A DNA stretch of 46,159 nucleotides. It comes from a virus. The DNA lies in the UHGV virus genome UHGV-1375912; one strand, written 5' to 3'. Positions 9,957 through 22,361 of this stretch are shown here, one piece after another (position 1 is the first letter of the stretch; every line of letters begins with the position of its first letter). Made by a program: the position numbers and the translations under genes. Below the pieces are notes generated by a model, which ran no database searches, had not been told where the DNA came from, and saw only the letters and a list, made by a program, of their open reading frames with translations.

Positions 9957-10604
9957 TCACCCAAACGTCTCTTCCGGCCACTGAGCCTTCACCACCTTCC
10001 CAATGATGCGGCAGCTGTGATCGCAATCCAGCACCCTATAAGCCGGATTAAGAGGCACCAGATAGCTAACGCCGCCATCTTTCTCATACTTCTTGAAGGT
10101 CACCTCAGAATCGCCATTTGCTGAGGCAACGCAGAAATCGCCTGTCTCAACATCCTCAGCCGGATCAACCAATATGAGCATACCCTCCGGGAAGCTCGGG
10201 CGAACACCCTGAGGGGCTGTCATAGAATGACCCTTTACCTCAAGCCAGAAGGCGTTCTCGCTTGCTTTCTTGGTTGTCGCCACCCATGACTTTGCATCGC
10301 TCGCGGTATAGCTTCCAACTTCTGAAAAAGGCCCTGCTTGGACAGAGGCGAACAATGGGTATTCATACTGCTTGAAAACAGAGTCGGCCTCATCACCAAA
10401 CATGATCATAGCTGGTGATACCCCAAGGGCAGAACCAAGGATTACCGCGTCGTCAGCACTTACCTTACGTGTGCCTAACTCATAATTACCCAGGCGAGAC
10501 GGAGCAGCCCAACCGCAAAGTTTGGCTAGCTGTACTTGGCTAAGTCCTTTTGCTTCACGCAGGGACTTGATCCTTTCCCCGATTAATTCATGCATTGTTT
10601 TCAT
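9957..10604 (-). CDS. cI: CI-type prophage repressor: N-terminal XRE HTH plus C-terminal S24 (LexA-like) autopeptidase domain.
   Basis: The C-terminal half is near-collinear with lambda cI (GHSMTAPQG...[13 protein letters not shown]...GDFC...FKK...PLNP...GKV...WPEETFG), with the Ser/Lys dyad retained. It is divergent from cro across an operator region. Confidence 0.9.
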
Positions 10605-15215: not shown

Positions 15216-15677
15216 GTGGAGACGCAACGTTTTCTACTGAGAGACAGCAACATCCGACAGAACTGCATCAGCGCCATTCAGCAACTCCCCGCCAATCCCG
15301 ACAAACCATTCGAAATAGTCATCCAGGAACGCAAGCGTACTAAGTCGCAGAACGACCGTATGTGGCCGCTTCTCCATGACCTTTCCCGACAGGTTGAATG
15401 GTACGGGCAGAAGTACACCCCGGACGACTGGAAAGACCTCATCACCGCACTCGTGGCTAAATCCAAAAACGAACAGCAGCGCACCGCACCCGGTATCGGC
15501 GGCGGCGTCGTCATGTTTGGCTCCCGGACCAGCAAGATGCGCGTGAGCGAAATGGTTGAAGTCATCGAGGCGATTTACTGGTTTGGCACAGAGCAGAACG
15601 TGAAATTCAGCGACGAAGCCCGGTTAGAGATCGAATGGGCGCAGCGCTGGGGCGAAAAGAACAGGAGGACAGAATGA
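15216..15677 (+). CDS. ninB: NinB (Orf-family) recombination mediator.
   Basis: IQERKRTKSQNDRMWPLLHDLSRQVEWYG is collinear with lambda NinB IQERNRSLDQNRKLWACLGDVSRQVEWHG. Confidence 0.85.
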   Translation: METQRFLLRDSNIRQNCISAIQQLPANPDKPFEIVIQERKRTKSQNDRMWPLLHDLSRQVEWYGQKYTPDDWKDLITALVAKSKNEQQRTAPGIGGGVVMFGSRTSKMRVSEMVEVIEAIYWFGTEQNVKFSDEARLEIEWAQRWGEKNRRTE

Positions 15678-16234
15678 TCACCAAGCAAAGGATTGAAGAG
15701 GTTTTAAATTTCGATCGTGAGAATGGGGTGTTCACTTGGAAAATATATCGTGGTGGAACCAAGAAGGTCGGTGATGTTGCTGGAACCATCGACAGCAAGG
15801 GTTATCGGCAAATCAGAATTGATGGAGTCACATATTTAGCTCATAGGCTTGTCTGGCTTCTGGTCTATGGAGCTTGGCCATCCCATCACATTGACCATAT
15901 CGACCGAAACCCATTAAACATTCACGAATCAAACCTCAGAAAATGCACTCACGCGCAAAATCATCAGAATGAGGGCGTGAGGTCTGACAGCACCAGTGGT
16001 GTGACAGGCGTCTCCTTCATCAAACGCAGTAAAAAGTGGCTCGCCTACATCAATGTTGATAACAAACGAATTCGCCTAGGTCAGTTTGAAACATTTGATG
16101 AAGCAGTGGCGGCAAGAATTCAGGCAAAAAAGAACTATCACACATTCCACCCATATCAAGAATGCCACCTCAGATTCAGCGACGAGTCAGCGCGTGCGGC
16201 TGAGTGGGCAGGAAGATTCGGGAGTACATCATGA
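15674..16234 (+). CDS. Second HNH-AP2 homing endonuclease, paralogous to 6350-6862.
   Basis: HNH motif IDHIDRNPLNIHESNLRKCTHAQNHQNE. AP2-like GVSFIKRSKKWLAYINVDNKRIRLGQFETFDEA. ATGA overlap with the ninB stop. Confidence 0.75.
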   Translation: MITKQRIEEVLNFDRENGVFTWKIYRGGTKKVGDVAGTIDSKGYRQIRIDGVTYLAHRLVWLLVYGAWPSHHIDHIDRNPLNIHESNLRKCTHAQNHQNEGVRSDSTSGVTGVSFIKRSKKWLAYINVDNKRIRLGQFETFDEAVAARIQAKKNYHTFHPYQECHLRFSDESARAAEWAGRFGSTS

Positions 16235-18393: not shown

Positions 18394-18524
18394 CCGAATA
18401 CCTCAGAGAGAAGTGGCTACGTCTTCGCATTCTAAAGATGCGCGGCATGTACGAGATCAGCTACCGGATAATCCGGAACACGGCGAAGATGATGGGGGTG
18501 ACCAATGCCAGTGCGCGAGCTTAA
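18390..18524 (+). CDS. Small 44-aa basic ORF (MTEYLREKWLRLRILKMRGMYEISYRIIRNTAKMMGVTNASARA).
   Basis: ATGA overlap with the upstream ORF. It fills the gap before the Q-like gene. Confidence 0.3.
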   Translation: MTEYLREKWLRLRILKMRGMYEISYRIIRNTAKMMGVTNASARA

Positions 18525-18993
18525 CCTTACTAAAGAGCAGCACGACTGGCTGAATAACTGGCTGGAGCTTTGGGGTGCGTGGGTTTACTCAGGAAGGCTG
18601 GAAAAGCGCCAGAGCAGTGTCATAGCGCAATACATGGCGACTGTTGAGCCGCAATCCTATCCATACCGGCCAATGTGCAATGATGATGACGGACTCTTGA
18701 TTTCTCAGGTCGTGGACTCCGTCATGTTCATCGATAAAAAAGCATTTGGCATCCTGCTCAGCTACTACGCTCACGGCTCTTCTAAGCGAGCCATTGCATC
18801 CTACTATCATAAGGTCGCAAGTCCCCGCAAAATGTCAGGGCGCGGCGGAGAAAGTACCAGGCGACCATCAATGATTACCTGCCGACGTGAAGTGGACGAA
18901 ATACTTAATGCCAGCCTCTATCTTCTCTATACTCCGCTGCTATCTGCATTTAACGATCGCAAACGTGTAGTTAAAATTAGAAAAGTCGCATAG
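18505..18993 (+). CDS. Putative late-gene antiterminator (Q-like, Q21/Q82-type size).
   Basis: 162 aa in the Q position, immediately upstream of a PR'-like promoter, a short leader and a strong terminator, followed by the lysis genes. Confidence 0.45.
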   Translation: MPVRELNLTKEQHDWLNNWLELWGAWVYSGRLEKRQSSVIAQYMATVEPQSYPYRPMCNDDDGLLISQVVDSVMFIDKKAFGILLSYYAHGSSKRAIASYYHKVASPRKMSGRGGESTRRPSMITCRREVDEILNASLYLLYTPLLSAFNDRKRVVKIRKVA

Positions 18994-18999
18994 TAAGTA

Positions 19000-19028
19000 T
19001 TGACACTATTGAGCCATTGAGCCACAAT
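19000..19028 (+). promoter_or_regulatory. Candidate late promoter PR': TTGACA, 17 nt, CACAAT.
   Basis: Consensus -35 with 17-nt spacing, 7 nt after the Q-like stop. Confidence 0.45.
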
Positions 19029-19110
19029 TTGGATATAAGCTGCCGTAAGTGTTCTTAAGGATGCTGCGGCACTTAAATCCAGTCAGTTCCATCGATTTGT
19101 GATAGTCAAA

Positions 19111-19150
19111 GCGCCCTGCGGTCTCACCAACTGCGAGGGCGTTTTTTATT
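19111..19150 (+). terminator. tR'-like intrinsic terminator (GCGCCCTGCGG...CTGCGAGGGCG plus T7), defining a ~110-nt 6S-like leader RNA.
   Basis: Long GC stem followed by TTTTTTATT. Confidence 0.6.
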
Positions 19151-19676
19151 GTGCACAACAGGTAAGAGCATTGGCGTGACGGCCTCATAAGCCAGCCCAC
19201 GCAGCAGCATAGCTGGGGAGCAATGTGTGCAATGTTCTTTCCGTTGTGGTGAATACTGGCTTCCTTGAAATGGAGTCGGAGATAAGCACCGGCCCACCAC
19301 AATAACTGAGCCGAATAGCAGCGCCTAATCGGCTCATCCCCTCCCGGGGATAAGAATCACCGCATACCCTGTAGCGGATAAGTAACATCACTAAACTATT
19401 TCAAAGGTCAGCCATAGAGCTGGCCTTTTTTCATTTCAGCGCCCAATGGATTTCCTCACACTTCATCCTGTGTCTTTTACGCGGGCGCTTTTTTCTACGG
19501 TGGATATCCGCAAACGCGGGATTCTCATTGTGATCAACTAAGGCTGCGTCGGGCATTAGACGGCGGGAAGGCTCGGGAAGGTTTCTCAGGTGACAGTGGG
19601 AAGTTTAACCGGGCTTGTTCTGTTCACAATGTCATCAATTCCTAAACAGGATAAGTCCCCGTATCAGGGGGTAGGA

Positions 19677-20000
19677 ATGCGTCGCATGCCATATAAATCA
19701 GATCCGGGCTTATTCGCCGCCATGATCGCCCTGGGGATGACAGTCCTCGGGTCGATAGCAGCATATGCCTACAAGGTATTAAGCGGGGAGGCCTTCAGCT
19801 GGCGCACCCTGTGTCTTCAGATGATTGTCTCCGTGTTTGCCGGGTTCCTCATGATGCTGCTCGCCATTTACTGGCAGTGGCCGCAGGAAGTCACCGGCGC
19901 AATCTGTGGTATGGCTGGCTGGTCCGGATCATCTCTGATTAAAACCCTTGAAAAGCGTTTCCTGCAGAAAGCTTCAGGAGATTCGGGAGTTGCTGAATGA
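19677..20000 (+). CDS. S: Class I holin, lambda S family, with a dual-start motif (MRRM). An antiholin is possible from the upstream GTG at 19590.
   Basis: Three TM segments. C-terminus GSSLIKTLEKRFLQKASGDSG versus lambda S GSLIKRFAAKKAGVEDG. GGGGGTAGG RBS. ATGA overlap with the endolysin. Confidence 0.8.
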   Translation: MRRMPYKSDPGLFAAMIALGMTVLGSIAAYAYKVLSGEAFSWRTLCLQMIVSVFAGFLMMLLAIYWQWPQEVTGAICGMAGWSGSSLIKTLEKRFLQKASGDSGVAE

Positions 20001-20626
20001 TGACCAGAGACCAGTTTAAAAAGGCAGCATCTATTTCTGATGCGCTCGCCAGTCGTTGGTATCCGCACGTTCTGGCGGCAATGAAAGAGTTCGGCATTGA
20101 CACACCAAAACGCCAGGCTTACTTCATTGCACAGGTTGGTACGGAGTCAGGCGGGTTCACTGTAATCAGCGAAAGCCTGAACTACTCAGTTGCCGGACTG
20201 GCAATCTTCGCATCCCGTCTTACTGCTGCACAGCGTGAGCAGCTCGGCCGCAAGTCAGGTGAGCCAGCCTTATCGCAGGAGCGGCAGGCTGCCATTGCCA
20301 ATATCGTTTACGGTGGACGCTATGGTAACAACCTGAATGGAGATGGCTGGAAATATCGCGGGAGAGGGCTGAAACAGGTTACCTTCCGCGATAACTACGC
20401 AGCCTGCGGTAAAGCATTAAACCTGCCGCTTCTATCTAATCCCGATTTACTGCTGGAAGACGTCAATGCCGCGCGCTCGGCTGGCTGGTTCTGGCAGGCC
20501 AACGACTGCAACCGCTTCGCCGATGCATCTGACGTGACCGGGCTTACCCGCCGTATTAATGGCGGCACAAACGGCCTGGCAGATCGCATTGCGCGCACAC
20601 GGATTGCAGAGCAGGTGCTCCTATGA
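19997..20626 (+). CDS. Endolysin, glycoside hydrolase family 19 (chitinase-like lysozyme).
   Basis: GH19 motifs AQVGTESGGF and YRGRGLKQVTFRDNY. Position is immediately after the holin. Confidence 0.85.
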   Translation: MMTRDQFKKAASISDALASRWYPHVLAAMKEFGIDTPKRQAYFIAQVGTESGGFTVISESLNYSVAGLAIFASRLTAAQREQLGRKSGEPALSQERQAAIANIVYGGRYGNNLNGDGWKYRGRGLKQVTFRDNYAACGKALNLPLLSNPDLLLEDVNAARSAGWFWQANDCNRFADASDVTGLTRRINGGTNGLADRIARTRIAEQVLL

Positions 20627-21024
20627 CAGGTAAAGCGAGAATGGCGAGATATCGCCGGTTCATCCCCGTCATCTTCTCGGTAATCATCATCGGTTTCGTT
20701 GGCAAGCTCTGGTATGACAACGCCAACCTCACAGAGCGCAACAACCGTCTGCGTGAGCAATTCATTCTGGCGAATGAGCGGAATATGAAGTTTGCTGAGG
20801 GCTTAGGGCCGATTACGAAGCGACTCGATAGCCTGGCAACAACGCTCGATGAAGAAAGCCGCAGGCGCTCTACCGCCGAGACCCGAGCTAACTCATTGCA
20901 GAAAGAAAACGAGTTCCTCCGCTCCAGCAAGCAGTGCTCAATAGCAATCGATCCTAGTGCTGTTGATAAAGCTAACAAGGAAGGCGGAACAGTGATAATT
21001 CAGGCTGCGCCGGCAGGTGAGTGA
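20623..21024 (+). CDS. Extra lysis-cassette protein: N-terminal TM helix plus coiled coil (i-spanin-like architecture) with no embedded o-spanin.
   Basis: FIPVIFSVIIIGFVGKLWY TM followed by a charged, heptad-rich region. ATGA coupled on both sides. Alternate frames carry no lipobox ORF. Confidence 0.55.
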   Translation: MTGKARMARYRRFIPVIFSVIIIGFVGKLWYDNANLTERNNRLREQFILANERNMKFAEGLGPITKRLDSLATTLDEESRRRSTAETRANSLQKENEFLRSSKQCSIAIDPSAVDKANKEGGTVIIQAAPAGE

Positions 21025-21476
21025 TGATCAACTTCCCATTTAGCTGGCGAACCATGCTGTTCGGCGTCTTAATTGTGATTCTGGTTTTGGTCTGCAGGCT
21101 AGCCATTTACTACCACGGTAAATACGTTAGTGCTGACAGCCTTGCAACCGAGCGCCAACAGACGATTGATGACATGCAAGTGCGTCAGCGTGATGTTGCC
21201 GCGCTTGATGCCAAATACACGAAGGAGTTAGCTGATGCTAAAGCCACTATCGATCAGTTGCATGATGATGTTGCTACTGGCAAGCGCCGGTTGCAGCTCA
21301 ACGCCACCTGCCAGAAACAATCCTCCTCCGGCACCTCCGGCATGGATGATGCAGCCAGCGCCCGACTTACTGACGCCGCTCAACGGGATTATTTCACCCT
21401 CAGAGAGCGAATCGAAGTCGCCGGAAAGCAAATAGCCGGGTTGCAGCAGTACATCCGGGAGCAGTGCCTGAGGTGA
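21021..21476 (+). CDS. Rz: Rz i-spanin.
   Basis: Collinear with lambda Rz: MQVRQRDVAALDAKYTKELADAKA, DDVATGKRRL, DAAQRDYFTLRER, QYIREQC. Confidence 0.85.
   Translation: MMINFPFSWRTMLFGVLIVILVLVCRLAIYYHGKYVSADSLATERQQTIDDMQVRQRDVAALDAKYTKELADAKATIDQLHDDVATGKRRLQLNATCQKQSSSGTSGMDDAASARLTDAAQRDYFTLRERIEVAGKQIAGLQQYIREQCLR
21235..21435 (+). CDS. Rz1: Rz1 o-spanin lipoprotein, embedded in the +1 frame of Rz.
   Basis: Lipobox LLLASAGC. Pro-rich PPPAPPAWMMQPAPDLLTPLNGIISPSE matches lambda Rz1. Confidence 0.8.
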   Translation: MLKPLSISCMMMLLLASAGCSSTPPARNNPPPAPPAWMMQPAPDLLTPLNGIISPSESESKSPESK

Positions 21477-21517
21477 CAAACCCCAAGAAGATCCACTTCA
21501 GCTAACAGAGCAATATC

Positions 21518-21546
21518 AGCCTCGCCATTGTGCGGGGCTTTTTTAT
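21518..21546 (+). terminator. Terminator hairpin after the lysis cassette (AGCCTCGC...GCGGGGCT plus T6).
   Basis: GC stem plus TTTTTTAT. Confidence 0.5.
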
Positions 21547-21686
21547 GCAACAAACCTCCGCGCGTCGCAGCGCATATCACTCCCGAGTCTTTCAGAAAGC
21601 TGAGCCTGAGAAATGCCGTATAGGTGCGGACCTCTCGGGGCGGCTTTTCTGTGCGAACAGGCTCATCTTTCTAAAAGGTATCCGTA

Positions 21687-22361
21687 ATGCAATTAGTAGA
21701 AATCAAGAAGCTCGACCTGGTCACCAACACCGTAGCAATAGCGGACGGGGTGGGGCGAGATCATGACACTATCATTAAGCTGGTTGACCGTAATAAAACA
21801 GACCTTGAAGAGTTTGGAACTGTCGGATTTGAAATCCGTAAGTCTGGCGGCAAGCCATTGCGCATTGCCTTACTGAATGAGCAGCAAACCACGCTGCTGA
21901 TCACCTACATGCGTAATAACGATGTGGTGCGAGCATTTAAAAAGCGGTTGGTTGCTGAGTTCTTCAAAATGCGCAGCACTCTCGCCGCACAGAAGATGGA
22001 CCGGAATTCTGCCCGCCTCGAATACAAGCCCATGACTGACGCTATTAAACACGAGCGCGAAGCCCAGGGTAAGCAGATAGCCCCGCATCACTTCAGCAAT
22101 GAAGCCGATCTGATTAACCGCCTGGCGCTGGGAATGACGGCAGCTAAGTTTCGCGTGTATCACGAGATCGGGAAGAAAGAAGCCATCCGCGATTACCTGA
22201 CGCCGGAGCAGATTCACTGCATAACAGAACTGCAACGCGCCAATACGGTATTCATCAGCATGGGTTGGGACTTCGAACAACGCAAAGAAGTGCTCAAAGG
22301 CATGTTCGAACGTAACCATCGCCAGCCACTGATTGAAGAGCAGCACACGCTGGCAGCATAG
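21687..22361 (+). CDS. Rha-family phage regulatory protein.
   Basis: The N-terminus LDLVTNTVAIADGVGRDHDTIIKLVDRN... resembles the Phage_pRha domain. A late-region location is typical. Confidence 0.55.
   Translation: MQLVEIKKLDLVTNTVAIADGVGRDHDTIIKLVDRNKTDLEEFGTVGFEIRKSGGKPLRIALLNEQQTTLLITYMRNNDVVRAFKKRLVAEFFKMRSTLAAQKMDRNSARLEYKPMTDAIKHEREAQGKQIAPHHFSNEADLINRLALGMTAAKFRVYHEIGKKEAIRDYLTPEQIHCITELQRANTVFISMGWDFEQRKEVLKGMFERNHRQPLIEEQHTLAA

Follow-up and report, generated by a model that had tools for sequence, protein, structure and literature searches.

A partnerless relative of two-component spanins in Erwiniaceae prophages: origin, selection and a possible accessory role in lysis

Introduction

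What is the place of a gene with the architecture of an inner-membrane spanin (i-spanin) in a lysis cassette that already carries a complete spanin pair, when no outer-membrane lipoprotein spanin (o-spanin) is encoded with it? The question is raised by the virus genome UHGV-1375912, analysed here as one stretch of 46,159 nucleotides (the window), a lambdoid prophage of Erwiniaceae (Pantoea/Erwinia) in which a 133-residue protein, here called X, is encoded between the endolysin and a lambda-type Rz. The initial annotation of this DNA had given the cassette as holin, GH19 endolysin, the 133-residue protein and lambda Rz with embedded Rz1, an order borne out by the map of open reading frames (ORFs) and by Pfam and PHROG matches, with the holin being of the LydA type. 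For X it had put forward a duplicated or diverged spanin, a regulator of spanins, or some other lysis factor of the periplasm. The comparisons set out below show that X very probably comes from an i-spanin family other than that of its neighbour Rz, and that it is kept by selection; it is probably an accessory lysis protein not described before.

Origin of gene X

Searched directly, X has no real family match in Pfam, PHROGs or NCBIfam, with no PHROG at E ≤ 0.1 and no PF10828 at E ≤ 1, and the weak, sub-threshold coiled-coil matches in Pfam (SHE3, KASH_CCD and bZIP) were rejected as compositional. X does not match PF03245, the lambda Rz family, either, and BLASTP against the Rz of the window gives no alignment. 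Used as a profile against 1.84 billion representative sequences, the X family recovers proteins of 123-158 aa at E-values from 1e-17 to 1e-4, and all seven of these relatives that were scanned are phrog_214 "Rz-like spanins", some of them matching DUF2570 as well, mostly below threshold. The hhalign comparison of the X family with phrog_214-type i-spanins gives a probability of 99.3% (E 4e-20) over X residues 9-119, whereas the same profile reaches 0.5% against the lambda-Rz family and 0.3% against i-spanins of the phrog_2536 type; because these two other i-spanin families score so low, the signal must reflect more than a shared transmembrane helix and coiled coil. Single sequences give the same picture by BLASTP: the i-spanin of locus L095 shares 40% identity with X over 118 aa (E 2e-13), and the protein annotated as "Rz lytic protein" in Erwinia phage Midgardsormr38 shares 38% over 102 aa (E 4e-21). 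The phrog_214-type relatives that were checked each carry an overlapped o-spanin in the +1 frame, with a canonical signal peptide and lipobox, and are genuine two-component spanins. X is thus very probably a descendant of a phrog_214/DUF2570-type i-spanin. Of the two origins first suggested, divergence from a spanin agrees with this homology and with the slot that the gene occupies, whereas duplication of the adjacent Rz does not stand, the pairwise check proposed for it having failed to relate the two proteins; an alignment of X to Rz alone would seem to be a misleading negative on spanin ancestry. No homology to a known non-lysis protein was found in Pfam, PHROGs, NCBIfam, PADLOC or the PDB.

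The slot itself points in the same direction. Synteny was read from 70 viral contigs that encode relatives of the window's GH19 endolysin in cassettes with a LydA-type holin. X directly follows the endolysin in 40 of the 70, with another spanin behind it where the sequence extends far enough. The remaining 30 cassettes are without X; its slot is taken by a phrog_214-type i-spanin, and no i-spanin of the Rz or phrog_2536 type lies downstream. A lipoprotein scan of five of them found in each one overlapped +1-frame o-spanin and no other. Midgardsormr38 is laid out in this way, with holin, an endolysin 76% identical to that of the window, Rz, Rz1 and Rha, and without X. By position as well as by sequence, X is therefore homologous to the resident i-spanin. 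Its most parsimonious history would have three steps, in which a cassette acquired a second spanin pair, the resident pair lost its o-spanin, and the orphaned i-spanin was remodelled into X. Duplicated spanin loci have been proposed as evolutionary intermediates by Kongari et al. (PMC6139136), and no description of a retained orphan i-spanin was found in the literature on orphan and paralogous i-spanins and on lysis cassettes of Pantoea prophages.

The absence of a lipoprotein partner, which the initial annotation had reported for every frame overlapping X, is confirmed by a lipobox and signal-peptide scan of all six frames over positions 20500-21500, which recovered Rz1 and nothing within X, and in the homologous loci that were checked the X gene likewise contains no plausible lipoprotein ORF. 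At the position where sister cassettes encode the o-spanin signal peptide, the +1 frame of X holds stop codons and no Cys. A 31-aa ORF in this frame (20849-20944, beginning MKKAAGALPPRPELTHC) was considered as a relic o-spanin and rejected, having neither a hydrophobic signal peptide nor a proper lipobox and lying 78 nt off the position of the sister lipobox. The +1 stretch that is truly homologous (Q-stop-QSILVLLIKLTRKAEQ-stop-stop) resembles the sister signal peptide at E 8.8, and was likewise set aside, since this resemblance follows automatically from the homology in frame 0 and is not independent evidence.

A second, different orphan i-spanin-like gene was seen at L049:577-1020 (P0045, 147 aa; Logan SRR10968246, NCBI GCA_015689235.1), placed between the genes for a LydA-type holin and a GH19 endolysin; a complete Rz/Rz1 and a DUF2644 membrane protein are encoded in this cassette as well. 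Orphaned i-spanins may thus have been retained on more than one occasion; the search for homologues of P0045 returned 2 clusters only, so that the frequency of such orphaning is not quantifiable from it.

Family size, selection and protein architecture

The X family is small, unannotated, missing from family libraries and restricted to prophages of Erwiniaceae. It amounts to 34 protein clusters in a collection of 5.8 billion proteins, almost all of 132-143 aa and assigned to Pantoea where a source is named, and 45 loci were fetched from viral and genome collections, including Erwinia sp. S63 and an Enterobacterales metagenome-assembled genome. About 45 independent loci have an intact ORF for X. 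Among 22 distinct full-length genes, the ratio of nonsynonymous to synonymous substitution rates (dN/dS) is 0.087 at a synonymous divergence (dS) of 0.92, compared with 0.092 for the GH19 endolysin, and by this measure purifying selection on X matches that on the endolysin in strength. The proportion of differing synonymous sites (pS) between distant homologues is 0.6-1.0, synonymous sites being saturated in the stretch of the tail motifs, and conservation of these motifs thus reflects selection on the protein rather than recent exchange of DNA. Truncated or frameshifted copies of X occur in loci L047 and L048, from Erwinia sp. S63 and a metagenome-assembled genome, in prophages that appear to be decaying. 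At L037:2376-3411, on the same contig as L117, an intact X has no spanin behind it, and a frameshift splits the GH19 gene.

The i-spanin architecture attributed to X at the outset, with one N-terminal transmembrane helix and a coiled coil, is upheld by hydropathy, heptad analysis and AlphaFold2 (Table 1). The first 12 residues contain five K/R and no D/E, and since these precede the transmembrane helix the protein is predicted to insert with its N-terminus in the cytoplasm (N-in). Residues 31-101 keep a single heptad register in which 70% of the a/d positions are hydrophobic, with a nearly invariant Pro63 in a G/P-containing hinge at residues 60-63. AlphaFold2 models one helix over residues 3-101, at a mean predicted local distance difference test (pLDDT) score of 65 for the protein, and the family profile matches only coiled-coil proteins in the PDB. 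Behind the coiled coil lie the C-terminal motifs that distinguish the family, which are invariant over 24 sequences with identity down to 38%; homologues at 38-47% identity retain NEFL, CSIAIDP or CRIAIDP, and VIIQAAP. In X of the window, too, the last of them reads VIIQAAP, within a low-confidence tail of about 30 residues. X proteins of the main clade start with MTGKARM and thus have a second in-frame Met at codon 7 (20623-20643 in the window), which is missing in the divergent clade P0033-P0035 and so is unlikely to be a conserved dual start.

Mosaic structure and changing partners

X stands between endolysin and spanin in 48 of 48 loci examined, and overlaps the endolysin gene by ATGA in 42 of about 47, while the genes around it change. 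Its holin is of the LydA or the lambda-S type, its endolysin belongs to GH19 or PF00959, and its spanins are of three unrelated kinds: embedded lambda Rz/Rz1, a phrog_214-type pair, and an i-spanin of the phrog_2536 type whose o-spanin, of 79 aa, overlaps it. Two X proteins that differ by one residue (99.2% identity) adjoin lambda Rz/Rz1 in one case and the phrog_2536 type in the other. Because near-identical copies adjoin unrelated spanins, X is not co-evolving with the phage spanin, and the idea that its C-terminal module moves as a unit with the downstream spanin was rejected on the same ground.

Exchange has also taken place inside the gene. In X from S-holin cassettes, residues 1-75 share 42% identity with P0056, the local true i-spanin, which follows a PF00959 lysozyme, and 22% with X of the window, whereas residues 76-133 are 53-60% identical to X of the window and about 25% identical to any true i-spanin. 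The S-holin-cassette protein P0033 (L001:861-1292) and P0056 (L119:525-995) share an identical transmembrane and juxtamembrane stretch, LICLALWMLNARSSQL. A protein composed of an i-spanin N-terminal part and the X module implies recombination within the gene between X and bona fide i-spanins. It follows that the C-terminal residues, about 58 in number (NEFL...CSIAIDP...VIIQAAP), define the X family and are presumably what selection acts on, the membrane anchor and first coiled-coil segment being interchangeable.

Layout of the lysis operon

The features of the window that bear on X are collected in Table 1.

Table 1. Coordinates of X, its parts and surrounding features in the 46,159-nucleotide window
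Feature	Position	Strand	Evidence or remark
Integrase	61-1224	minus	
CI-type repressor	9957-10604	minus	
Q antiterminator	18505-18993		PF06530 at 2e-23
Candidate late promoter TTGACA-17-CACAAT	19000-19028	+	Consensus scan, pattern match only
Two terminator-like hairpins	19403-19428, 19467-19485	+	Between Q and holin
LydA-type holin	19677-20000	+	107 aa from ATG 19677; PF16083 2e-11, phrog_6384 5e-35
GH19 endolysin	19997-20626	+	Soluble, without N-terminal hydrophobic segment; PF00182 7e-9, phrog_181 3e-86
Gene X	20623-21024	+	133 aa; between endolysin and Rz
X transmembrane helix, residues 13-31 (FIPVIFSVIIIGFVGKLWY)	20659-20715	+	Mean Kyte-Doolittle 2.0; AlphaFold2 pLDDT 87-94
X periplasmic coiled coil, residues 32-101	20716-20925	+	Heptads, AlphaFold2, PDB profile matches
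X-specific C-terminal module	20908-21012	+	Motifs NEFL (96-99), CSI.IDP (105-111), V.IQ..P (124-130)
X invariant Cys105 codon	20935-20937	+	Aligns with conserved Cys of phrog_214-type i-spanins (alignments, hhalign)
Lambda-type i-spanin Rz	21021-21476	+	PF03245 5e-42, phrog_13 3e-53
Embedded o-spanin Rz1	21235-21435	+	Signal peptide MLKPLSISCMMMLLLASAG followed by C, proline-rich mature part; PF06085 2e-16
Intrinsic-terminator-like hairpin and T run	21518-21549	+	End of lysis operon; hairpin at 21518-21539, 8-bp stem, 6 GC pairs, TTTTTAT
Rha regulator	21687-22361		

The initial annotation had all these lysis genes chained by ATGA overlaps, which holds for holin and endolysin (19997-20000) and for endolysin and X (20623-20626). 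The junction of X and Rz is instead GTGA (21021-21024), or TGATG if Rz begins at ATG 21024, the start of Rz being ambiguous between GTG 21021 and this ATG; the Shine-Dalgarno-like AGGTGAG of Rz falls within the last codons of X. Candidate promoter and terminator sites bracket the lysis cassette, and X has no promoter of its own. The promoter-like site is close to the consensus and lies directly 3' of Q, and both hairpins between Q and the cassette lie about 200 to 270 bp 5' of the holin start. The layout over 19000-19485 would be of the lambda pR'/tR' type and fits a late transcript under Q antitermination.

The holin begins with Met-Arg-Arg-Met (19677-19688), and would gain 29 residues if started from the in-frame GTG at 19590. 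Lambda S has a dual-start motif of the holin/antiholin kind, and the Met-Arg-Arg-Met of this holin is possibly another. Elsewhere the window also encodes a DnaB helicase and morphogenesis genes, and an ORF in the early or replication region (15635-16234) has HNH_3 endonuclease (7e-13) and AP2 DNA-binding (7e-7) domains and looks like a homing-endonuclease-like insert. A search of the window for tRNA genes and Rfam families found none.

Possible functions of X

On balance, though by no means securely, X is best read as a functional i-spanin descendant that does without an o-spanin, its docking end retargeted, and that assists or times the outer-membrane step of lysis. X would be made together with the lysis proteins and insert N-in into the inner membrane, dimerise through its coiled coil and a disulfide at Cys105, and reach across the periplasm. 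Lambda Rz forms an intermolecular disulfide-linked dimer, and by analogy an intermolecular disulfide at Cys105 may be expected in X. The C-terminal module would bind something common to all cassettes and close to the outer membrane. Because X is indifferent to the holin, endolysin and spanin that accompany it, the partner would more readily be a component of the host envelope than of the phage, and candidates in the Erwiniaceae envelope are an outer-membrane protein or lipoprotein, peptidoglycan, or a host protein that spans the periplasm. Bound in this way, X would not be a spanin itself but would help or time the final step of lysis, at the outer membrane. This particular mechanism, an auxiliary or modulatory action at the outer membrane, is offered tentatively, as one possibility.

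Several observations weigh against so specific a reading. The idea of a host target is an argument by elimination. AlphaFold2 gives the tail no confident structure (pLDDT below 50), and the tail alone retrieves no relatives from PDB sequences or from the index of 5.8 billion proteins. The Shine-Dalgarno sequence of Rz overlaps part of the last three codons of X, and could be the reason why the final A-G-E is conserved, but it does not account for VIIQAAP. A tblastn search with X in 50,697 deposited phage genomes (E ≤ 0.01) returned nothing, in a search insensitive enough to have missed the Midgardsormr38 i-spanin that BLASTP aligns at E 4e-21, and for this reason tblastn negatives on proteins of transmembrane and coiled-coil composition are not to be trusted; the low-complexity filter probably masks these sequences in X. 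Finally, sister phages, the isolated phage Midgardsormr38 among them, lyse without X, so that any role of X must be accessory.

A bolder proposal, and a doubtful one, makes X the founder of a new class of lysis proteins: a partnerless i-spanin with a host-docking module, for which TonB is a candidate target by way of a beta-strand like a TonB box, acting as a host-coupled booster or control of outer-membrane disruption alongside any spanin.

The function might instead lie in the inner membrane, with X regulating the timing of lysis as an antiholin-like protein or holin modulator through its transmembrane helix and juxtamembrane part. Its place within the cassette and translational link to the endolysin would suit such a regulator, many accessory lysis genes known from other phages encode regulators (T4 RI, P1 LydB, P2 LysA), and the N-terminal half of X tracks the type of cassette, LydA-holin or S-holin. 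This last difference, however, is fully explained by ancestry and recombination with the local i-spanin, as in the 42% identity of the N-terminal part of P0033 to P0056, and the part conserved throughout the family is the periplasmic C-terminal module and not the transmembrane helix. As X also resembles none of the antiholin families of PHROGs or Pfam, regulation of timing from the inner membrane is unlikely.

That X still works as an i-spanin, pairing with the co-resident o-spanin (Rz1) or mixing with the co-resident i-spanin in a redundant or reinforced spanin, might be expected from its retention of all architectural features of i-spanins, the conserved Cys included, and from the complete spanin pair downstream. 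Such pairing is nevertheless improbable in view of the 99.2%-identical X proteins found beside lambda Rz/Rz1 and beside the phrog_2536 type, since the three co-resident o-spanin families share no sequence, X has no similarity to Rz, and the LRxxADxVRxG tail of its relatives has been replaced.

Just as improbable is a role in exclusion or conflict, with X acting as a dominant negative against the phrog_214-type spanins of competing prophages, or as a decoy in the periplasm that would block an uptake system of the host that other phages use. The coiled coil by which phrog_214-type i-spanins dimerise is preserved in X, their tail is not, and such spanins are frequent among sister prophages in these hosts. 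The decoy would draw on a loose resemblance of the X tail TVIIQAAPA to a TonB box: FhuA carries DTITVTAAPA. A pentapeptide of the TonB-box consensus, ETVIV, inhibits TonB-dependent phage infection (PMC9841981). The resemblance is short, though, and a PDB search with the tail was empty; moreover, the product of a late-operon gene without its own promoter would not be made in the lysogen, and PADLOC gives no real match, X of the window being unmatched and P0033 matching DruG weakly (5e-4, 16.7 bits), which is regarded as compositional.

Least probable of all is that X is a functionless relic of spanin replacement, kept as a translational-coupling spacer or recombination landing pad, for although X stems from an i-spanin that was displaced, reaches into the start of the gene behind it, is missing from sister cassettes and is broken in a few decaying prophages (L047, L048), coupling needs an open frame only and not a conserved sequence, whereas X has a dN/dS equal to that of the endolysin at dS of about 0.9, tail motifs that persist at saturated synonymous divergence, and a frame that is intact in locus after locus.

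Significance

To our knowledge, lysis of Gram-negative hosts by holin, endolysin and spanin has few accessory players, and we know of none that is derived from a spanin. X would be such a protein, a partnerless i-spanin kept under selection of endolysin strength, with a new conserved tail and shuffled among cassettes. Erwiniaceae include plant pathogens targeted by phage biocontrol, and if the tail of X does bind a component of the host envelope, it would reveal a hitherto unrecognised site where the lysis machinery of the phage meets the envelope in this family of bacteria. X also serves as a natural example of the duplication and replacement intermediates that have been proposed for spanin evolution (PMC6139136). 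For annotation, the locus is a warning that a transmembrane helix and a coiled coil beside an endolysin do not suffice to call an i-spanin, and it shows that "hypothetical proteins" of about 130 aa in the slot behind the endolysin form a definable family.

Comparison with known systems

Accessory membrane proteins of lysis cassettes are known from other phages, among them the T4 antiholin RI, P2 LysA, P1 LydB and the Mu releasin gp25. X resembles these in being an additional, non-essential, membrane-associated gene of the cassette that presumably modulates lysis. Unlike them, it can be traced to an i-spanin, and it has no similarity to any of them by PHROG or Pfam match.

With lambda Rz/Rz1 (PF03245/PF06085), X shares the i-spanin architecture and a place in a lambdoid late lysis operon. 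It differs in having no detectable sequence relation to Rz (0.5% by hhalign) and no embedded Rz1, and it has a single Cys, in contrast to the two invariant Cys of the Rz family represented in the window.

P0045, the other orphan, is like X in its transmembrane helix and coiled coil, in having no lipobox ORF, and in a cassette with LydA-type holin, GH19 endolysin and complete Rz/Rz1. It matches phrog_214 at 1e-9 and the X profile at 3e-9. Unlike X, it lies 5' of the endolysin and ends in a different tail (KCAIALIPGDPSDPSKK...).

The closest likeness is to the i-spanins of the phrog_214/DUF2570 (PF10828) type, such as the "Rz lytic protein" of Midgardsormr38 (MN602881), whose o-spanin is annotated as "Rz1 lytic protein", and the Rz-like spanin of Cronobacter phage ENT47670; with this type X is homologous over residues 9-119. 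Like the Midgardsormr38 Rz, X sits directly behind a GH19 endolysin, the two endolysins being 76% identical. The N-in transmembrane helix, the coiled coil in two segments, the central ExxRRxxAE...LQ and the Cys followed six residues on by Pro are common to X and this type. X departs from it in lacking the overlapped +1-frame lipoprotein gene, in scoring too low for detection by the PHROG and Pfam models, and in being accompanied by a second, complete spanin. Where the phrog_214-type proteins have an (E/D)(V/I)KxAL(K/R) helix before the Cys, X reads NEFLR, and where they end in LRxxADxVRxG, all X sequences carry the tail xKxxKxxxxVIIQAAP.

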